DNA from: Candidatus Hodarchaeota archaeon
Lineage (GTDB): Archaea > Asgardarchaeota > Lokiarchaeia > Sigyniarchaeales > SOKP01
Length of the DNA stretch: 64,000 bases
Direction of reading: 5' to 3'
NCBI GenBank assembly: GCA_048886685.1
Contig: JBHLKM010000002.1
Location: 71,532-135,531, forward strand
A program made the position numbers and the translations under genes. Numbering within the stretch: position 1 is the first letter of the stretch; each line of letters begins with the position of its first letter. This document shows positions 40,122-52,277 of the stretch, piece after piece. The notes beneath the pieces were generated by a model that ran no database searches, had not been told where the DNA came from, and saw nothing but the letters and a program-made list of their open reading frames with translations.

Positions 40122-42491
40122 TTATTTCTTTTCAAAAACTTTAGCCATTGCCTCCAAATTTTTTCTTAATTTAGGGCTATCTGGTATTTTTTCTAATTGT
40201 TCAGTATATATTGGGTAATATATATGCAAAATACTTAATATTTCAATCCAAGATTTCTGAGTTTCTGTTTTATCAGGAATTTCCTTTTTTAATTGGAATA
40301 AAACTCTCTTCTCTTTTTTTGCTTTTAGATTTTTGAGAAAAGTTTTAGTAACTATAATTCGAAATTTAGAGTACTCCTCAGGTCTGAAATTCACCAAAGA
40401 ATAATTCATATTATCATCCGCGAAAGGTAAAATTCTAATCCTTTTATCCTCAGGCTCATTTGGATTCTCAACTAAAGAGATTTCAATATTACTCTTGTTT
40501 AGATCTTCCAATATGGGATATAATTCTCCAGGTGTTATTCTTGTAGCTAATTCAATTTCATTAGAAATCTCAGATATTGGTATGTAAAATTCAGGCATTT
40601 TTTTTGGATTTTCTAACCTATAATTATATTCTTTTTTAATTATTTGGATTATCACAGATTTCAAATTCTCTGTAAACTGCTCAGAAGTGAAAGAAATATC
40701 TGCCTTTTTTAGTTTTTCGTCATGTAATTCTTTATCTTTTTGTTTCTTACTAAAATCAGAAGTAAGAGATGATATAAAACTATTTGTGGTGTTCCCTGCT
40801 TCAGCATCTACAGTTAACCTGCTAGTCTTTCTATCTTTCTCTAAAGCCATTTCTAAGATTCTCTCGCTTAGATATCTTCTTGCCTTTTGCTTGGCGACTC
40901 CTTTCTTCTCAAAACGTTCAGTAACGGATACAAAATCAATCATTTTTATCGGTTTTCCTAAATCCTGTTTTTCTTCTTTAATTAAAATATCCATATCCTT
41001 TTTTACCAATTGTTCAAGTAGTGCATAAACATTTCCCTTCGATAATTGCGTAGCTTTAATTAGCTCTCGCTCAATTATTTCGATCGGGTAAGCGTCACCT
41101 CTCCTAATATATTCACCTCTAATAATTTTATAAATTCTTTCCATACTCTCCTCTTCTGCGCTTACGGTCTCTTTTTGTAATCTCATGAACATAGATGTTT
41201 CGTGAGGTTTTAAATAATAAATTAAGATAGTGCTACCCAAGAAAAAAATCATTAGAACTGAGATTATGTATTTATCAGCCATTAATACGATTCCAATATC
41301 GGTAACTATTTGGTTAGTTATTTGACTTGCTATGGCAAAACGAGTTAATGTTTGAGCAAATACACAGGCTAGACAAAGCAAAATTAGGCCGTCTTTTTTA
41401 AAGAAAAGAATTCGCCACCCAATTGTCTGCCCAGTTTTTCTTATAATTCGAAATAAAAAATACATAGAAATTATAAATTCAAATATGTATATGTATGACG
41501 CTGGTGAACCCGTTGCCCCGATTGTTGCCTTAAAAGCTGTAACTGTATCATCTTGAAGAAGCATATATATACTAATTTGCAAAATCTGAAAGAAAAAGAT
41601 AAACAAAACAATTAAAGAAAAGGTAAAGTTGTCAAATGTACCTGCTCTTTTAGTTTCTGCTCGTCTTCTAGTAAGCACAAATTCAAAAATAATAAAGACT
41701 AATGTCATAACTAAGCTGAAATAAATCAGTGGCATGATTACACGCATTTCTAAATTATAAACCTTAACCGCACTAGTGGGATCAACATCTCCAAAAAATT
41801 CTAAAGATAACCACACCAAAAAACTCCTATAAAATAAGGAAATTATAACAAGTATGCCTAAAATAAAAAATGGAATAATTATCGCAAAGAAATATCTTGG
41901 AATTGAATATTTTTTAATAAATCTTGCTTCTATTTTTGTTGAAAATTTCCTTGAATAAATATAAAAGCGACTACTTAAGAGAACTAACCAAATCATTGCT
42001 AGAGTTAATAAATATGTCATAAAATTAAAATCTGTTGAAATATATAATAATAGCAGATACAATACAGCAAATAGAACGCAATATAATATCAGTTGCTTAA
42101 TTACAGTTTTTTCTTCAAAAATAAATATTCTTATTTTATCTACGCTAAACAAAAAAGACAATACTAAAAATAATGCGACAATAGTATTTGAAAAAACAAA
42201 GGGATTACCTAACATCAATAAATTAATCCAAGTACTTTCTGGAATGTTAATAGCAGTAATCAATAGCAGTGAATATATAGCAAATATTCCATATAATCCA
42301 TAAAATCTTCGCTGGAAAGAATATGACTTTGGTTCTTGACCATCTACATAGACTTCTTGATGGACTATTTTATCATGATAAAAAGCTGATAACGTATTTT
42401 TTGTTTTTGATGTGAAGCCCTTAACTTTTTTTTTAACCCCAATTTTTCCAGGTTTTGACTTTTTTGAAGAATCCGATTGCTTATTAGACAT
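40122..42491 (-). CDS. Polytopic membrane protein (about 10 TM) with large cytoplasmic C-terminus containing two probable winged-helix repeats
   Basis: Hydrophobic N-terminal half; repeats IYKIIRGEY...PIEIIERELIKATQLSKGNVYALLEQL and IIQIIKKEY...PISEISNEIELATRITPGELYPILEDL. Confidence 0.7.
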   Translation of the reverse strand: MSNKQSDSSKKSKPGKIGVKKKVKGFTSKTKNTLSAFYHDKIVHQEVYVDGQEPKSYSFQRRFYGLYGIFAIYSLLLITAINIPESTWINLLMLGNPFVFSNTIVALFLVLSFLFSVDKIRIFIFEEKTVIKQLILYCVLFAVLYLLLLYISTDFNFMTYLLTLAMIWLVLLSSRFYIYSRKFSTKIEARFIKKYSIPRYFFAIIIPFFILGILVIISLFYRSFLVWLSLEFFGDVDPTSAVKVYNLEMRVIMPLIYFSLVMTLVFIIFEFVLTRRRAETKRAGTFDNFTFSLIVLFIFFFQILQISIYMLLQDDTVTAFKATIGATGSPASYIYIFEFIISMYFLFRIIRKTGQTIGWRILFFKKDGLILLCLACVFAQTLTRFAIASQITNQIVTDIGIVLMADKYIISVLMIFFLGSTILIYYLKPHETSMFMRLQKETVSAEEESMERIYKIIRGEYIRRGDAYPIEIIERELIKATQLSKGNVYALLEQLVKKDMDILIKEEKQDLGKPIKMIDFVSVTERFEKKGVAKQKARRYLSERILEMALEKDRKTSRLTVDAEAGNTTNSFISSLTSDFSKKQKDKELHDEKLKKADISFTSEQFTENLKSVIIQIIKKEYNYRLENPKKMPEFYIPISEISNEIELATRITPGELYPILEDLNKSNIEISLVENPNEPEDKRIRILPFADDNMNYSLVNFRPEEYSKFRIIVTKTFLKNLKAKKEKRVLFQLKKEIPDKTETQKSWIEILSILHIYYPIYTEQLEKIPDSPKLRKNLEAMAKVFEKK

Positions 42492-42667: not shown

Positions 42668-42946
42668 ATGATAAAGACTAAAGCAGAAAATAGAGAAAGC
42701 CTGATAAGTCTAGTAAAAAAGGCAATTGAGTTACTTTGCGAGAAAAACATTTCAAGTGTTGTAATTTTATCTTCTTATAAGATCAATTCTGTTCTCCGTG
42801 AAAACTATGGAGTAGATATCAAAGTTGATAGAATAGGCAGAATTTTAAGTCGGGTTGCTAAATTAAATCAATTAAAAAGATTAAATACAAATATTCCGAA
42901 ATATAAATTACAAATTTCAAAGGTATCTAGTCTACAATTCTTTTAA
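42668..42946 (+). CDS. Small basic probable winged-helix protein
   Basis: 92 aa; SSYKINSVLRENYGVDIKVDRIGRILSRVAK...KYKL pattern. Confidence 0.6.
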   Translation: MIKTKAENRESLISLVKKAIELLCEKNISSVVILSSYKINSVLRENYGVDIKVDRIGRILSRVAKLNQLKRLNTNIPKYKLQISKVSSLQFF

Positions 42947-42954
42947 AAACAAAC

Positions 42955-44304
42955 TTATGTTATATTGCGGAAATCAGTAATTGTTTTTTGGAGTTTTTCA
43001 AGCAAAATTTTTATTTCTGAATAACTTTCTTTGATTGGTTTTAATTCCACTTCTATTTCTTCAAACCTATCATCAATTTGTGTTTTAACTGGGGTTGTGA
43101 CTTTCTCTATATGTTCAGTTATGTCTTTTGTAATATTTTTTATATCCGCTTCCGTATCTGAAGCTAGGTTGTTTAAATCTGTAATCACAGTTGTCATTTG
43201 GGAGTTTGAATCTGAGGTTTTTTCCAAATTATTTGCCAAATTTTGGATTTTTTCCTCTAATGGGGAAATTACATTTTTAATTTGTTCAGCAATTTGGTTT
43301 TTTGCTTCTTTGATTGTTGCATTTAGAATTATTGAAATTTCATTTTTTAATTCCTTTTGACCCTCAACACGTCTATCAATATATTCAGTTACATTCTTCT
43401 TAAAAAGTCTTGAAATTTCTTCAAAAGTACTATTAAAAAATTTCTGTACATCTCTTAAACCATCCGAAACAGCATTTTTTAATTGGTTTAGGGATCTACT
43501 AATGTGTTCCATACCTTTTAGAGTTCCTTGAGACACTTCATTAACCCAATCATTAAATTGTGTTTCATAAGTCATTCCAATCGCTTCATTTAATTTAGTC
43601 AATCCATTGGTAAAACCAGATATTACCTTATCTACCTGTCCTGAATAATCTTTAATACTTTCTTCTATTAAATCGTCAGCTGAAAGAGGGATTTCTTGAA
43701 GTTCTCCTAAAGATTGTTCCTTTAATTCTTTGATTATAACTGGAGATAAACTTTGAGAGTCCTCTACAAATTTTTGTACCCATTTAAAGAAATTCAGGTT
43801 TGCAGGTATCTCAACTTCATAAGAGACTTCCAGGTAATCTTTTGATTTTTTATATTCTTTTAATGTATAAATTTTAAAGTCAAACTCTTTCTCTTTACCC
43901 ATGAGTGTGTGATCAAAGATAACTACAAAACAATAAGGATTTTTCTCCGTTTGGAAAAATTTATGATTTTGAATTGTAATATCAGTAAAATCAAGACCCC
44001 AGCCAGGTCGAGAAATATACCATCCTACTATCTTCATATCCTTTTCTTGGTATTCCTTATCTAATCTAACAAATAAATCAATATCTTCTTTATTAAAACC
44101 AGTTGATACATGAATTCCATGTTGAATGGGAATAATATTAATTAAATTGATCACCTTACTCGCTTCATCAATCTCACCAATACAAATGCCCATTACCTCA
44201 ACGCTTTCATCTAATGCCTCATTTCCAAATCTTAACACATGAGTTATCATTCTAATCAGTGCATCAGCTTTAATTTTGACTTCAAAATTATCTATCGATG
44301 GCAA
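42955..44304 (-). CDS. Catalytically inactive MPN- (JAB1/Mov34) domain protein with long helical/coiled-coil tail
   Basis: ALIRMITHVLRFG, EVMGICIG, JAMM motif degenerated to GWYISRPGWGLDFTDIT, VIFD. Confidence 0.85.
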   Translation of the reverse strand: MPSIDNFEVKIKADALIRMITHVLRFGNEALDESVEVMGICIGEIDEASKVINLINIIPIQHGIHVSTGFNKEDIDLFVRLDKEYQEKDMKIVGWYISRPGWGLDFTDITIQNHKFFQTEKNPYCFVVIFDHTLMGKEKEFDFKIYTLKEYKKSKDYLEVSYEVEIPANLNFFKWVQKFVEDSQSLSPVIIKELKEQSLGELQEIPLSADDLIEESIKDYSGQVDKVISGFTNGLTKLNEAIGMTYETQFNDWVNEVSQGTLKGMEHISRSLNQLKNAVSDGLRDVQKFFNSTFEEISRLFKKNVTEYIDRRVEGQKELKNEISIILNATIKEAKNQIAEQIKNVISPLEEKIQNLANNLEKTSDSNSQMTTVITDLNNLASDTEADIKNITKDITEHIEKVTTPVKTQIDDRFEEIEVELKPIKESYSEIKILLEKLQKTITDFRNIT

Positions 44305-44310
44305 TTTTCT

Positions 44311-45801
44311 CTACTCATCTCCCTTTTCTATTTTTTTAATTTTCTCTAGTAATCCTTGATTTTCAGCCCTGAGATCCTTTACAGTCTTTTGTAAATCCTT
44401 ATTTTCAGTTTGTAGAGTGTTTATTTTATTTTTGATTGGATTCTTAGAACTATCTAACAATATTATTGCTGCTTTTAAATCAGATAAATAATTTTTAGTT
44501 TCTTTATTTAGATTATTAAGATTACCCTTAATTCTACTTACTCTTTTATTAAATGATGTTAATAAATCCTCTTGTGCGGTATTTAAATCATTTTGGATTA
44601 AATTATCAACAGATTTATATGTTTCTATATAATCTTTTAAAGCATTGGTTCCTTTCTTTAGATTTTCAATATTATTTGAAAAATTTTTATTAAACTCTGT
44701 TAAAGTATTAGATGTTCTTGTATTTTCCTCCAAAAGCTGATTAAATTTTGCATCCTTAAAGGGGATATTAATTTGGTTTTTATAATCTTCTTTCGAATTG
44801 TTAACCAATTCTTTGATATTCTCCTTTTCATTATCTAATTCTTCAAGTTTATCATCAACATAGAAATCTATATCTCTTAAATCGTTCTGTAAATTATAAT
44901 TAAAAGATTGCTGCAAATTAATAATTTCTTTACTCAATTTATCTCTTATTTCTTTTAAATCATTCCTCATCCCTGAATTATTTTGGCGAATCTTGTTGAC
45001 TATATCTTGCCCCCAAGTATTAAGTAAAGAAGCCATTGGTCTAATGGTTAATTCTAGAAAATTATCCATCCCTTGTTTTAAAGTTGAAATTATTTCCTCA
45101 AAATTAAATTCAGGTAATTTCGATTCTATTTGTTCTTTTTCAGGAATAAAAACATCCTTAAATAAATCAATTGTTTCATTTAGTTCAAGAATTTGAGGGC
45201 TTCTTGTATGAACAGCATTTATTAATTCTATTATCTTTAAAAAAAAATCATAATTATCAGGTGGTTCGATAGTAGCTTTTACTTCATGGTAATCTGATTT
45301 TAAAGCTAATGAAGGATCATCTAATCTTGTTTCACTCAATCTAAATGCCCTAAATCCTAGATCGTTAGGCTTATCTAAGTAAGTATGGTCAAATACAAGT
45401 CCTACACCACTAGGATTTTTTTGCCAAAATATTTGATTATATTTGTCAGTCTCACTAAAGAAAATACCTAAACCTGGGTGAGAATGGTACCATCCCACTG
45501 AAAACCACCCTAGATCGCCATATTGCTCCCATATTTTTGTATCTAATTCCCCAAATGCCCCTAATTGATCCACTGAGAATTTTACTTCAATTGTACCTCC
45601 ATGAGAAACCGGTACTACATCTTCAACTATAACATTTTTAATTTCATCCTCTCCTTCAAGATGACCAATCAGAACCCCCATAACTTCTGATAATTTTAAA
45701 TGTTCTATATTTTTTGATCCAAAACGCAAAACATGTAGTAACATTTTATAATACGCAAGGGGTTTAATCGTTACTATACTTTGATCGCTGCTTTTCCCCA
45801 T
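44311..45801 (-). CDS. Active JAMM/MPN+ metalloprotease (Rpn11/CSN5-like) with long coiled-coil tail (likely start ATG 45801)
   Basis: LAYYKMLLHVLRFG, EVMGVLIG, GWYHSHPGLGIFFSETD, LVFD, FRAFRL. Confidence 0.9.
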   Translation of the reverse strand: MGKSSDQSIVTIKPLAYYKMLLHVLRFGSKNIEHLKLSEVMGVLIGHLEGEDEIKNVIVEDVVPVSHGGTIEVKFSVDQLGAFGELDTKIWEQYGDLGWFSVGWYHSHPGLGIFFSETDKYNQIFWQKNPSGVGLVFDHTYLDKPNDLGFRAFRLSETRLDDPSLALKSDYHEVKATIEPPDNYDFFLKIIELINAVHTRSPQILELNETIDLFKDVFIPEKEQIESKLPEFNFEEIISTLKQGMDNFLELTIRPMASLLNTWGQDIVNKIRQNNSGMRNDLKEIRDKLSKEIINLQQSFNYNLQNDLRDIDFYVDDKLEELDNEKENIKELVNNSKEDYKNQINIPFKDAKFNQLLEENTRTSNTLTEFNKNFSNNIENLKKGTNALKDYIETYKSVDNLIQNDLNTAQEDLLTSFNKRVSRIKGNLNNLNKETKNYLSDLKAAIILLDSSKNPIKNKINTLQTENKDLQKTVKDLRAENQGLLEKIKKIEKGDE

Positions 45802-45942: not shown

Positions 45943-46602
45943 TTAGTCATGGGGTAATGGTTTACCGCAATAAGGACAAAATTTCCAATCTAAATCCTTG
46001 CCACAGTGTGGGCAAAAACTCGAAGATGTTGAACTTGTTGGCGTTATTTCTGCAGCTCCTTCTTTTGGTATGGATGGTAATTGTCTTGTTGTCTTCAAGG
46101 TTGTAGTTGTTGAAGCTGTAGGTTGTTCTTCAGCCTTTCTAGCCGCTACTTTTTCTCTAAAAGCTTGTCTTCTCTCTTCATCGAGTTCTTGTTGGCTTTT
46201 TGTAGTTTCTGTTTTAACCCATCCTTGACTTTGTGTTCTTTTTAATTCACTTGCAGGTACTTTTTCTAACTCAACTCCCTTAGTTTCCGATATAGGGGCT
46301 ACAACTTTCCTTTCCTCTTTCTTTTGAATTGCTTGTTTAACCAAAGCCTGCGTAGTTTTCATCACCTGATGAGGGTTAATATTAGGAATTGCCACTGTAC
46401 GTAAAACCCACCCAACGATCAAATTTTGGTTTGGAAACCCTCCTTCGGTGTCCTCATCTTTATAGACATATGACTCAATTATATCCCTTCCTTTTAATAA
46501 TCGTGAAGCCCATTTGCCATTAATTAATCCTAACTGTATTCTATAGCTGGTTCCTGGTATACCTAATTGACTTGATAGTGGTTCAAATCCTCTTTCTGTC
46601 AA
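45943..46602 (-). CDS. Protein with globular N-domain, low-complexity linker and C-terminal zinc ribbon
   Basis: Ends FCPHCGKDLDWKFCPYCGKPLP; T/E/K-rich linker. Confidence 0.75.
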   Translation of the reverse strand: MTERGFEPLSSQLGIPGTSYRIQLGLINGKWASRLLKGRDIIESYVYKDEDTEGGFPNQNLIVGWVLRTVAIPNINPHQVMKTTQALVKQAIQKKEERKVVAPISETKGVELEKVPASELKRTQSQGWVKTETTKSQQELDEERRQAFREKVAARKAEEQPTASTTTTLKTTRQLPSIPKEGAAEITPTSSTSSSFCPHCGKDLDWKFCPYCGKPLPHD

Positions 46603-46865: not shown

Positions 46866-47822
46866 ATGACTGTAATAATACCCAAAAAAGTCTATCTAAC
46901 TATCGTAGCCGCGGCTGTAAGATTTGCAAATGCACGAATACCAAAAGATGAATGGCTTGAAGTTAGTGGTATTTTCACTGGTAGAAATGAAGGGAATAAT
47001 GTTATTATATCTGCCGCTTATCCTATCATGCATCAAAAACTAGATAAAGATGCTGTGATTGATCAGTACAAATGGTCTGATGAAGATTATGAATCCCTTT
47101 ATATTATTGATGATGAAGCCTTTTCAAGAGATCCTCCGGAATTTGTGGTTGGCTGGTGGCACTCGCATCCTGGATTTAAGGTTATGATGTCCCATATCGA
47201 TATTCGTACGACACTATCTTATCAACAAAATAACCCTTTAGCGATTTCTCTTGTATTCAACCCTCAACGGTTAATACGTCAAATCGAAGTTGCTGATAAA
47301 AAGGGAGATCCAGATATACAATTAAAAAATGATCCTGGTTTTAAAATCTTCAGATTAGATGATGTAAATAGTGGAATCGAAGCATCTTACCATTCTGCCG
47401 ATTATAAAATTGAAGGGTATGAAAGTATGGAACAATTAATAAATTTGACGCAAAAATTTATTGTAGACGTAACTAATTTATTCCCAAAAGAGAAAGTACC
47501 ACAGACTTATGATAAAGTAATTGATGAGAGAATAGAACAGTTAAATTCCTTGCTACTCGGTACTGAAGAATATCTAACAACTTTAACTCGGCACGGGGAA
47601 ACTCAGCGTATCCCTGAAGTCTTAGAAAATCAGAATGAAGAGATCAATAGATTTGTGGAAGAAACGAATAAAAGAATAGACTTTATTAAACAATTCAAGG
47701 AATACTTAGAATTCAAGGAAAGAGAAACTATAATACCTCAAATAGAAAAGTCAGTATCTAAATGGGATGGAGCTGTGGCTGGTTTGAGTAAAAAATTGAA
47801 AGAAATCTCCAAAAAGTTTTAG
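46866..47822 (+). CDS. Second active JAMM/MPN+ metalloprotease with helical C-terminal domain
   Basis: EVSGIFTG, VVGWWHSHPGFKVMMSHID, YQQNNP, LVFNP, FKIFRL. Confidence 0.88.
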   Translation: MTVIIPKKVYLTIVAAAVRFANARIPKDEWLEVSGIFTGRNEGNNVIISAAYPIMHQKLDKDAVIDQYKWSDEDYESLYIIDDEAFSRDPPEFVVGWWHSHPGFKVMMSHIDIRTTLSYQQNNPLAISLVFNPQRLIRQIEVADKKGDPDIQLKNDPGFKIFRLDDVNSGIEASYHSADYKIEGYESMEQLINLTQKFIVDVTNLFPKEKVPQTYDKVIDERIEQLNSLLLGTEEYLTTLTRHGETQRIPEVLENQNEEINRFVEETNKRIDFIKQFKEYLEFKERETIIPQIEKSVSKWDGAVAGLSKKLKEISKKF

Positions 47823-47959: not shown

Positions 47960-50164
47960 ATGAAAAAAATTAATTTTCCGTTTACAGCAATACTTGGGCA
48001 AGATAAAATGAAGATGGGTTTGATACTTAATTTAATTGACCCACTAATCGGAGGGATCTTAATGACAGGTCATCAAGGTACAGGAAAAAGCACTGCTGTA
48101 CGAAGTCTCGTGGAATTAATGCCTCAAATCGAAGTTATAAAAGGTTGCGAATTTTCATGTGTCCCTTATTCAGATATTGATGATTTATGTGAAAGATGTA
48201 AAGAAAAAAAAGAGAATAAAAAAGTTGACACAGAATTTAGGGACATGTGGCTAGTAAATCTACCCTTGGGAGTTACAGAAGATATGGTTTGTGGCTCTTT
48301 ATCCATTGATAAAGTCCTTACAGAAGGAATAAGAGCCTTACACCCAGGATTATTAGCTAAAGCAAATAGAGGTATTTTATATGTAGATGAAATTAATCTA
48401 CTACAGGATCACATTGTAGATGTTCTTTTAGATTCTGCTGCTTCTGGTGTTAATATAATAGAAAGAGAGGGTATTTCTGTATCTCATCCCTCTAGATTCG
48501 TTCTCGTAGGAAGTATGAATCCTGAAGAAGGTGATTTGAGACCGCAAATTGCTGACAGACTTGGTTTAGAAGTTAGGATCAGAGCTCCTAGAGATAATGA
48601 ATTAAGAGCTGAAATCACAAGAAGAGTTATTGATTTTGATGATAATCCTAAGGAGTTCATTAAAAAATATGAAGATCAACAAGACAAATTAAGGCAAAAA
48701 ATCCTTAATGCTCGTAATATATTAAAAGAAGTTCAAATCCCTAATTCTGTTTATGAATTTGTATCTAAAATTGTTAGTGAATTAGAAATCTTCTCTCAAA
48801 GAGCTGATATTACCTTCATTAGATGTGCCAGAGCTCATGCTGCATTAAATGCAAGGAAAATTATAGTGGAAGAAGATCTAAATGTGGCAATGGATTTAGT
48901 ATTTGAACACAGAATTCAATCACTTCATTATGAAATGACACCCGAAGAGATAAAATCTAAGATTGCTGAAGTTTACGGGAAAATTAAAGAAGCTTATGAA
49001 GATACTAATGTACTTCAACCTAATAGAGAAACAGAAGGACCTTTAAAACATGATGATACTTCTCAAAAGGAGTTCAAACGTCAATCAGTCGATCCAGATA
49101 AAGTAGATATACCCGAGTCGAGAGAACAGAAACTTCCCCCTCCAAAATATCCTGATAATAAGAAGAGAAGCCCTAAACCTGCTGGAGGTTGGAAAGTTAA
49201 AAATATACCTTTTGATGAGGATTTCAGATTTTTTGAGGCTAAAAGTACATCCCTACCATTCATTTACCAAATGGAAAAAAAGATGACCTCAATACTTGAC
49301 AATATTAGAAAAGATCGGAAGATTTCAGATTATGGGGGCAGAGGAATAGGAAGGAGAATTAAAATATCTTCCTCTCAAAAGGGTAGATATGTATCATACA
49401 GAACACCAATAAGCGAAAGCCCAAAAAGTATTGCTTTAGATGCCACAATTAGAAATTACCTTAAAAATATAGTATATAATGAAACTGATATAGAATTTCC
49501 AATACATTTTAATAAATATGATTTAATGGATAAAATCTATGAATATCGTGCTCCTTTAGCTCTCTTTTTTGTACTTGATAGTTCAGCATCAATGTATTAT
49601 GTTATTAAACAGATGACAGATGTAATATTATCTTTACATCGAGAAGGCTTTAGAAAAAGAGATAAAATAGCTTTGTTAGTGTTTCGTGGAAAACAAGCAG
49701 TAGTCCTTCAGAAACCGACAGTAAATTTTAAAATGGCAGTAAATAAATTGAAAAAAATCGAGGGAAAATCCTATACTCCAATGGCAGCAGCACTTAAAAA
49801 AGTATCAGAACTAATAAAAGTTGAGAAATTGAAGGATAGAAATATAATCCCGATTGTTTTTATTTGTAGTGATTGTGGTGCGAATATCTCTGTTAAATAT
49901 CCTGATATGATTGCTCAAGTTGAGACTGATTATGTATTAATCACTCAGGAATTAAAAGAATTAACCAAGAAACTATCGAAACAGAAGATTCATATGGTAG
50001 TTCTAGAGCCAAAGAAATCTTATGCTACTCAAGCACTTGGAGTTCACACATATTCCGCCGAAAAAATAAAAAAGAACTTCAAAAAGTATGCCAGTGCCCA
50101 AATATACAAGTTCAATAAATATAATCCCAATTCTCTGATACTAGAATTGAAAAAAATTTTGTAG
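47960..50164 (+). CDS. Mg/Co-chelatase ChlI/ChlD-like AAA+ ATPase fused to a vWA domain
   Basis: FPFTAILGQ, GHQGTGKST, PGLLAKANRGILYVDEINLL, NPEEGDLRPQIADR, Pro-rich linker, FVLDSSASM, TPMA. Confidence 0.88.
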   Translation: MKKINFPFTAILGQDKMKMGLILNLIDPLIGGILMTGHQGTGKSTAVRSLVELMPQIEVIKGCEFSCVPYSDIDDLCERCKEKKENKKVDTEFRDMWLVNLPLGVTEDMVCGSLSIDKVLTEGIRALHPGLLAKANRGILYVDEINLLQDHIVDVLLDSAASGVNIIEREGISVSHPSRFVLVGSMNPEEGDLRPQIADRLGLEVRIRAPRDNELRAEITRRVIDFDDNPKEFIKKYEDQQDKLRQKILNARNILKEVQIPNSVYEFVSKIVSELEIFSQRADITFIRCARAHAALNARKIIVEEDLNVAMDLVFEHRIQSLHYEMTPEEIKSKIAEVYGKIKEAYEDTNVLQPNRETEGPLKHDDTSQKEFKRQSVDPDKVDIPESREQKLPPPKYPDNKKRSPKPAGGWKVKNIPFDEDFRFFEAKSTSLPFIYQMEKKMTSILDNIRKDRKISDYGGRGIGRRIKISSSQKGRYVSYRTPISESPKSIALDATIRNYLKNIVYNETDIEFPIHFNKYDLMDKIYEYRAPLALFFVLDSSASMYYVIKQMTDVILSLHREGFRKRDKIALLVFRGKQAVVLQKPTVNFKMAVNKLKKIEGKSYTPMAAALKKVSELIKVEKLKDRNIIPIVFICSDCGANISVKYPDMIAQVETDYVLITQELKELTKKLSKQKIHMVVLEPKKSYATQALGVHTYSAEKIKKNFKKYASAQIYKFNKYNPNSLILELKKIL

Positions 50165-50273
50165 ATAATGGTTTTAAAAATACAAAAAAAATATTAGTTA
50201 GAATTGTAATAATCAATTGAACTTTTAACTAGATCTTCTATAAAGTTCTTAAGTTTATAATTCTAATTGATAT

Positions 50274-51524
50274 ATGATGGATTTAAGTACCAAATCTGTT
50301 TTAGTTGTAGGATTTAATACACGTCCTTTAGCTTACTCTTTAAAGAATGCTAATTATGATGTATATGCAGTAGATTTTTTTGGAGACATTGACCTTTATC
50401 CAAACATTAAAGATAGTTTGGTTCTAACAAAAGAGTTAGAGACAGATTATGAATCAATTAGGGATAATTATAGCAAGTTACTCTCTAATTTTACGATAAA
50501 AATGTTGAAAAAATATCCCGAAATAGATTATTTAATCATAGGGAGTGGAATAGACGATGCCTATGAAGAAAGAGAAGCGATTTTTAATGAAATAAAAAAC
50601 AAAGATTACAAAATAAAGAATTTAAATAACGATGTTAAAACTCTAAAAAAGGCACGAGACATCATTTTTATTTATAATCTCTTAAAATCAAACCAATTTA
50701 ATGTTCCTTTTACCATTAATTACGATAATCTAAGATCATATAAGAGAAAACTTCAATTTCCAATCATATTTAAGAAATATAAAAGTGCTGGTGGCATAAA
50801 CGTTTTCAAAATCGAAAATTTTGAAGAACTCACCACATTAATTAAATATTTAGAAGTAAAGAAGTTCAATTCATCTGAATGGTTAATCCAAGAATACGTA
50901 GATGGAATGCCTATCAGTTGTACAACTATTTCGAATGGTAATGAATGTGAAATTATTTCAATTAATCGCCAAATTATAGGAGAACAATTTCTAAACTCCC
51001 CCAAAGAATTCATGTATTGCGGTAATATCGTGCCTGCTGATTTAAGTAAGGAAGAGGATGAACTAATTACAAAGATATCTAAAACTTTAGCTAATGAATT
51101 AGGTTTAAAGGGTATTAATGGTTTTGATTTTGTGTTAAAAGAACATTATCCATATTTAATGGAGATTAATCCGAGAATACCTGGTTCTATAAGAGCATCT
51201 GAAATGAGTTATGATATAAATCTCATGGATTTACATATAAAGAGTTTTGATTTGGATAAATGGGATCTCATTCAACAATTAATACGTTCTAAAAAATTAA
51301 GTGGATTTTCAACTAAATTAATTATATTTGCTCCAAAAGAAATAAAGAAAAGCCATATCTCTAAAATAAACAATCTTGAATACGTTCATGATAAAAGTAC
51401 ACCAAATAAGAATACCCTGAAAGGTGAACCTCTATGCACCATTTTATATAAAGGAGGAGATTTATCAGAGTCTTATAAAGGAGCGATAGATATTGTGAAT
51501 AAAATTAATAATATTATTAATTAA
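50274..51524 (+). CDS. ATP-grasp carboligase of the archaeal/methylotroph H4MPT-linked type
   Basis: VGFNTRPLA, AVDFFGDID, GSG, SAGG, QEYVDG, YCGNI, GINGFDF, EINPRIPGS. Confidence 0.8.
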   Translation: MMDLSTKSVLVVGFNTRPLAYSLKNANYDVYAVDFFGDIDLYPNIKDSLVLTKELETDYESIRDNYSKLLSNFTIKMLKKYPEIDYLIIGSGIDDAYEEREAIFNEIKNKDYKIKNLNNDVKTLKKARDIIFIYNLLKSNQFNVPFTINYDNLRSYKRKLQFPIIFKKYKSAGGINVFKIENFEELTTLIKYLEVKKFNSSEWLIQEYVDGMPISCTTISNGNECEIISINRQIIGEQFLNSPKEFMYCGNIVPADLSKEEDELITKISKTLANELGLKGINGFDFVLKEHYPYLMEINPRIPGSIRASEMSYDINLMDLHIKSFDLDKWDLIQQLIRSKKLSGFSTKLIIFAPKEIKKSHISKINNLEYVHDKSTPNKNTLKGEPLCTILYKGGDLSESYKGAIDIVNKINNIIN

Positions 51525-51539
51525 TGGCTTTTATTTTTT

Positions 51540-52277
51540 CTACTGAATTATCGCTTTAATTTTGGCAATATAGGAACCTATTTTCCTTCCATCTGCCTCA
51601 GGAACTGCAAGTGCTAGAATTCGATTCTCGTCTAAATCATGAATAATAACAGATCCATTTTCTCCCCCAATAATAGAATATTCCATACTACTTTCTAATA
51701 AAACACCAGATAAATTATACAGAGCTGCTACCATTGCCGAAAGAATTGGTTCAGGCATAGTTGATTGTATTTTTATAGGTAGCCCATCTTTAGTAATAAT
51801 CGCTAGTACCAGTGTATTGGGAATTGCTCTTTTCAATCCCTTGAATATTTCTTCCTTTAAGATATCAGAAGTTTCTATTATTGCTGAAATTTGTAATGCT
51901 AATTTTTGTAATTTACTAATGTGTGAATCCAATCCTTCTAGTTCTGCAATTTCTCGATTTAAATAAGCTATCATAGTTATATTGTCAGTCAAGATAGAGA
52001 GCACTATTCGGTCCTTTCCTGTAATTAAATTATATGCGACTTCTTGATTTAAAGAGTCTTTCAACATCTTAGATGATAGGAATACGAGGCTACTATTGGC
52101 AGCTGTAATCTCACCCATAGTCATTTCAATCGATTTCTTAAACCTATTGGCAATCTTCGTACCTTCTGGTGTCCCTACATTAATTCCTAATATAGCAGAA
52201 GTAGATTCAAGCTCCTTCTCTATTAGTGTGGAAACATCAGATTCTACTTCCTCAATAATTTTATCTTGGTCTTCCAT
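51540..52277 (-). CDS. Tandem roadblock/LAMTOR-like domain protein
   Basis: Two roadblock-like units: GINVGTPEG..IA and LAIITKDGLPI...LSAMVAAL...IIGGENGSVII. Confidence 0.75.
   Translation of the reverse strand: MEDQDKIIEEVESDVSTLIEKELESTSAILGINVGTPEGTKIANRFKKSIEMTMGEITAANSSLVFLSSKMLKDSLNQEVAYNLITGKDRIVLSILTDNITMIAYLNREIAELEGLDSHISKLQKLALQISAIIETSDILKEEIFKGLKRAIPNTLVLAIITKDGLPIKIQSTMPEPILSAMVAALYNLSGVLLESSMEYSIIGGENGSVIIHDLDENRILALAVPEADGRKIGSYIAKIKAIIQ

Follow-up and report, generated by a model that had tools for sequence, protein, structure and literature searches.

The window analysed here, a 64,000-nt stretch of a contig from the Lokiarchaeia, carries two co-oriented genes, A and B, each coupling an MPN domain to a long helical stalk (table 1). 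The earlier note had described them as paralogues 6 nt apart; the spacing is plain in the sequence, and the paralogy holds over the full length, with A and B aligning at 24% identity over 475 aa (E = 5e-35) and, profile to profile, with probability 100 over 423 columns, the stalk being included in both cases. A Shine–Dalgarno-like sequence, GGAGATGA, can be read directly within the final codons of A, 10 nt ahead of the TTG of B. A promoter scan returned 22 sites against 24.9 expected, which is the chance level for a bacterial model that is ill-suited to archaea.

Table 1. Features of the A–B locus and its surroundings (positions in the window).
Feature	Position	Strand	Remarks
Gene A: MPN+ (JAMM) domain followed by helix-4, P-I-L-E linker and a helical stalk of ~260 aa	44311–45801	−	496 aa, ATG start
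Intact JAMM motif of A, H106-S107-H108-x7-S116-x2-D119	45445–45486	−	sequence; invariant columns in orthologue alignment
Gene B: MPN domain lacking zinc ligands, followed by a helical stalk of ~236 aa	42955–44304	−	449 aa, TTG start 6 nt past the stop of A
Degenerate motif of B, I97-S98-R99-x7-T107-x2-T110, catalytic E36 kept	43975–44016	−	sequence
Active-site segment of B, ~60 residues from Ins-1 to the motif helix inclusive	43945–44136	−	in relatives, tree at odds with that of the remaining operon
Gene D: 219-aa protein, C-terminal zinc ribbon	45943–46602	−	co-oriented; ≤1.5 kb upstream of A in 55/63 loci
Gene C: third MPN+, 318 aa, separate clade	46866–47822	+	divergently transcribed; linked in 49/55 loci
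92-aa convergent gene	42668–42946	+	end 8 nt from the stop of B; found at 85/91 loci
789-aa multi-pass membrane protein, winged-helix-like C-terminal repeats	40122–42491	−	downstream of B in 52/62 loci
ChlI/ChlD-like AAA-vWA fusion plus ATP-grasp-like gene	47960–51524	+	after gene C
245-aa protein, Roadblock/LC7 match	51540–52277	−	apparent second roadblock-like half

Over the region searched, gene A is 100% identical to a database protein that is likewise 496 aa long. It has the Rpn11/CSN5-like N-terminus previously ascribed to it (LAYYKMLLH, EVMGVLIG) and the complete JAMM signature of an MPN+ protein, E-xn-H-x-H-x7-S-x2-D, in the form of the catalytic E39 with H106, H108, S116 and D119. B likewise agrees with its first description: the two His and one Asp that serve as zinc ligands are gone (ISR, T107, T110), while E36 within EVMG, GWY, PG and FD are kept. 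With an MPN fold, no zinc ligands (I97/R99/T110) and retention by selection, B has the properties of an MPN− pseudoenzyme. Pfam JAB matches both proteins (E = 2e-11 for A and 7e-11 for B). In their AlphaFold models the MPN domain is followed by another helix, a linker of low confidence and one continuous helix of 260 residues in A (234–493) and 236 in B (213–448), so that the tails of roughly 250–300 aa first proposed fit A but slightly overstate B. Both stalks have a hydrophobic period of 3.5–3.7.

Foldseek matched A with BRCC36, CSN5 and Rpn11, BRCC36 chains ranking top, while its best PDB sequence matches were Rpn11 and CSN5 (E about 5e-7 and 3e-6, figures for A and B); the best sequence and fold matches of B were also Rpn11, CSN5 and BRCC36. 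Against NCBIfam the pair had only coiled-coil and desampylase matches below threshold, and matches to apolipoprotein, SMC, ZorA and ATG17 were dismissed as generic to helices.

The membrane protein downstream of B has no family match except a weak one to PadR, and the AAA-vWA linkage to the locus is kept in many relatives. Several gene C orthologues (L048:11353, L050:11659, L071, L074, L077 and L213) carry an intron-like, frame-breaking insertion of ~30–31 nt directly after the HSHPGF codons; it occupies the same site in several relatives, ends in CTAA in four of five examined, and is absent from the window. Stops are also present in gene C at L215.

Range of the pair and loss of the B active site

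A profile of the B family found matches in 121 of 129 genomes of the family, nearly always exactly two per genome; two sister families had matches in 4/14 and 1/1 genomes, and a fourth family in none of four. Among approximately 150 Asgard genomes outside the order there was no full-length B match, only MPN-domain matches (best E = 5e-30), and by this measure the pair is confined to a single Lokiarchaeia order. The frame of B opens no more than 10 nt from the stop of A in 98 of 99 pairs, which bears out the idea of a conserved, syntenic operon; in G066 a 6-kb insertion separates the two genes. Two draft genomes, 97–99% complete, lack both A and B, and in a sister family two single-contig genomes lack the pair and retain D; a further apparent absence (G064) was rejected, being explained by a contig break. 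Five genomes from other Loki orders have stalked MPN+ genes that belong to different clades and are not in tandem.

The active sites of the two genes contrast beyond chance. All five residues (E-H-H-S-D) are intact in each of the 116 scorable orthologues of A, whereas the B motif is intact (including an S-to-T variant) in only 42 of 120; in the other 78, at least one residue is gone. These degenerate copies display over 20 loss patterns, and 22 of them have lost the Glu while keeping the three zinc ligands, a count in which a few Glu calls may be alignment slips. In the same genus as the window, most B orthologues carry the full JAMM motif. The earlier note's description of an obligate enzyme/pseudoenzyme pair does not survive this comparison, since about a third of B orthologues retain the complete motif. 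Parsimony on an A+B tree built with the motif columns left out gives nine state changes in B, or 12 under losses only; intact B is found in several basal lineages, and the dead states are varied and nested among intact B genes.

The dead copies are nevertheless under purifying selection, with a dN/dS for the MPN domain of about 0.09–0.23 (10 pairs). Conservation in dead and intact B, respectively, is 0.70 and 0.68 for helix 1, 0.64 and 0.61 for helix 4, and 0.61 and 0.62 for the linker; for Ins-1 and the motif the corresponding figures are 0.47 and 0.64, and 0.50 and 0.70. B does evolve faster than A (mean MPN identity 49% versus 67%) and has lost its motif, as a recent duplicate in decay would, but we give that explanation almost no credence: full-length frames persist in approximately 120 genomes with dN/dS far below 1 and conserved orthologues, A–B identity is only 24%, and the duplication predates the family.

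A predicted A–B complex and its relation to known MPN systems

A tree of 87 Loki MPN domains places the two genes together in one clade, as sister paralogues (SH-aLRT 89). The model that we consider probable is that a tandem duplication inside one Lokiarchaeia order gave rise to A and B, which would be co-translated as a two-subunit complex, A acting as a zinc isopeptidase and B as a structural partner whose catalysis was lost repeatedly, in convergence with eukaryotic pairs. The subunits would assemble head to head and along their stalks, the MPN heads joining via helices 1 and 4 plus the linker, as in MPN dimers, and the two stalks of ~240–260 residues combining into one long coiled coil. 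A would most likely strip a ubiquitin-like modifier from proteins, and B would act as its scaffold, perhaps placing Ins-1 in the way that KIAA0157 positions Ins-1 of BRCC36 (PMC4579573). As B would be a structural partner, its own catalysis would be dispensable, and could be lost independently in many lineages, including that of the window, while the partner surface was retained.

Helices 1 and 4 form the interface of Rpn11–Rpn8. Structure prediction of the full-length A+B complex gave a weak pass (score 0.50, against 0.00 for the best control), with at least 47% of contacts common between runs and a partner pLDDT of at least 66. The pass mark was reached by 58 of 80 solved complexes and two of 110 mismatches, but passes at or below 0.60, where A+B falls, comprise only seven of the 80 solved complexes and both mismatches. 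Paralogues whose fold associates with itself may receive similar scores, and the score may also reflect memory of solved MPN dimers. The heterodimer anticipated in the earlier note is, on this weak pass, plausible. Stalk lengths of A and B are uncorrelated across the set (Spearman 0.07, not significant). G038 has a second, shorter A/B pair (L034:7194–9273; open frames of 369 and 334 aa), active upstream and degenerate downstream like the main A/B order, in which both stalks are shortened together (133/125 versus ~230–250 aa).

Alternatively, A and B could be co-regulated yet build separate homo-oligomers on their own stalks, with dead B serving as a substrate-binding decoy or reader. The dead groove, ISRPGWGLDFT[DE]IT, is near-invariant inside its clades, suggesting that something is bound there; CsRpn11 of Caldiarchaeum subterraneum, which forms a dimer through helices 1 and 4 in crystals, is monomeric in solution (PMC6043591); and the heterodimer prediction is only weak. 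We regard this arrangement as unlikely given the 98/99 adjacency, the joint absence from two genomes, the joint shortening of the stalks in one pair and the conservation kept in helices 1 and 4.

The genome has seven MPN genes, two of which, as read from motifs, sit inside Ubl–E1–E2 operons on other contigs. At the A–B locus itself there is no ubiquitin, E1 or E2 gene, and hence no linkage of the CsRpn11 type; the neighbours encode the zinc-ribbon protein, the third MPN, the ChlI/D-like AAA-vWA protein, the 92-aa protein and the membrane protein. In other Loki orders (L140, L142 and L144) a different stalked MPN+ clade of 480–520 aa is encoded beside E1 (ThiF), E2 (UBC) and vWA-RING (Ssl1-like) genes. 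From the MPN family of A and this related stalked clade with its E1, E2 and vWA-RING partners, we infer that A acts on a ubiquitin-like conjugate. A mainly structural role is improbable in comparison: the pair would be a coiled-coil rod or tether with MPN heads, the site of A processing or binding a target other than ubiquitin. Lid, CSN and BRISC subunits have C-terminal helices far shorter than these stalks of 240–260 residues, and the hydrophobic period of the stalks and the lack of a Ubl gene at the locus fit such a rod. Against it stand the invariance of the five catalytic residues of A (116/116) and the E1, E2 and vWA-RING genes adjoining the related clade.

BRCC36–Abraxas and BRCC36–KIAA0157 resemble the pair in setting an active MPN+ subunit beside an MPN− partner, with helices after both, and in BRISC the pseudo-DUB activates the enzyme (PMC4579573). 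However, BRCC36 systems have a short helical bundle where A and B have stalks of ~250 residues, and B differs in being born of a duplication of A itself and intact in a third of lineages; BRCC36_C was absent among the Pfam families listed for the pair. Rpn11–Rpn8 and CSN5–CSN6 share the same MPN fold with Ins-1, and Rpn11 and CSN5 provide the best sequence matches of both A and B, but B is like the active subunits, not Rpn8 or CSN6. The Pfam matches listed for A, B and 40 B orthologues did not include RPN11_C, CSN5_C or MitMem_reg; these proteins have a continuous stalk instead. The MPN pairs of the lid, CSN and eIF3 come with six PCI-domain subunits. No PCI subunits are encoded at the A–B locus, and a PF01399 search of the genome gave five short matches in three unlinked long ORFs, the same search being positive in four of 14 control genomes too. 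A 792-aa ORF (contig C5:155590–156474) has three tandem winged-helix matches to the PCI model, probably representing generic winged helices.

CsRpn11 and the JAMMs of Asgard ubiquitin operons are, like A, archaeal and Rpn11-like with an intact motif, and A matches CsRpn11 (PDB 6fju) with E = 1e-6. CsRpn11, however, is short and encoded beside Ub/E1/E2/E3 (PMC6043591), whereas A has 496 aa, is paired, and lies outside the two Ubl operons of its genome. An organisation of the Rpn11–Rpn8 type has been stated as not known in archaea (PMC6043591), and the literature searched, with incomplete coverage, held no description of the A–B pair. Most likely, the pair works like an MPN+/MPN− pair such as Rpn11–Rpn8 or BRCC36–Abraxas, yet falls outside the lid, CSN and BRISC families.

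The earlier note had left the choice between an ancestral and a convergent origin unmade. The nesting of the dead state within intact B, the sisterhood of A and B inside one order and the match of B to active MPNs together point to convergence: on a tree confined to Loki sequences, the dead state of B appears derived and recurrent, and its likeness to eukaryotic pairs not ancestral. From the matches and that same Loki-only tree, B likewise does not appear to belong to the eukaryotic MPN− lineage (Rpn8/CSN6/eIF3f/Abraxas). It is highly improbable that the pair preserves the ancestral form of eukaryotic MPN+/MPN− heterodimers, despite its Asgard origin, its fold match to Rpn11, CSN5 and BRCC36, and the finding that Rpn11 has some of its nearest prokaryotic relatives in Asgard JAMMs (PMC6043591). 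Eukaryotes branch mostly near Heimdall/Hodarchaea, outside Lokiarchaeia (PMC12993045). Basal B genes are intact, the pair has no match beyond the order, and B has no match at E = 0.1 to Rpn8, CSN6, eIF3f or Abraxas among PDB sequences.

In eukaryotes, the switch to dependence of an active MPN on a dead paralogue was complete before their last common ancestor, so its origin cannot be studied there. Here, one complex appears to exist in both states, with B intact or dead, among close relatives and with over 20 dead motifs. The order in which catalysis was lost and allosteric dependence was gained becomes directly testable, as does the reason why the dead groove is retained. The A–B pairs would be an independent replay of the making of a eukaryotic enzyme/dead-enzyme pair; because they arose inside one Loki order, they have no direct bearing on eukaryote ancestry.

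The active-site segment of B and an older operon

The ISR…T-I-T motif of the window's B recurs in five genomes, G015, G006, G118, G288 and G303, which otherwise fall within an intact-B clade. Outside the active-site segment, their grouping is rejected (AU p = 9e-5), the five having been picked by motif after earlier trees had been viewed. In a tree of the 61-column segment, the five ISR genomes come together (95/95) and join the window's clade (98/92), and the genus's intact alleles all group (99/95), although this segment contains the motif and part of the grouping is built in. G303 shares 67% identity with the window's B inside the segment and 37% outside it. Synonymous sites favour the segment grouping weakly and are near saturation, which leaves a recent transfer of the ISR segment unsupported. 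The five genomes also have a 3-residue deletion in common with their intact neighbours, a pattern that one clean transfer does not explain. We lean towards old recombination in which intact and dead alleles were exchanged; parallel substitution is a possible source of the same conflict.

In G038, G101 and G119 the operon reads D-S1-S2-A-B, where S1 and S2 are stalkless dead MPNs of ~200 aa that end right past the same P-L-I-x-E linker. In G075 and G036, S1–S2 are located elsewhere, and all five genomes carry intact B. Tandem copies of S1/S2 lie at L033:5437–6838, L083:940–2163, L104:3–1100, L206 and L207, all from basal lineages of the order, and are either part of the D-A-B operon or derived from it. 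None of the remaining genomes searched, that of the window included, yielded S2. One hypothesis is that B replaced lost S1/S2 pseudoenzymes; many genomes without S genes also retain intact B, and kin are not independent. A fuller history can be offered tentatively, and taken as a whole it is doubtful. The pair would be a true stalked JAMM heterodimer in which B alternates between enzyme and pseudoenzyme, with about 10 losses after a four-MPN operon (two short dedicated pseudoenzymes and two active stalked proteins) shrank, and with recombination swapping intact and dead segments between lineages, at least once probably restoring the motif. If true, this would provide a natural series of enzyme–enzyme and enzyme–pseudoenzyme forms of one complex. 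Another intact MPN+ paralogue of ~300 aa is encoded near A/B at L204:3863–4777 and L205:4073–4963, in two genomes that both retain S1–S2.
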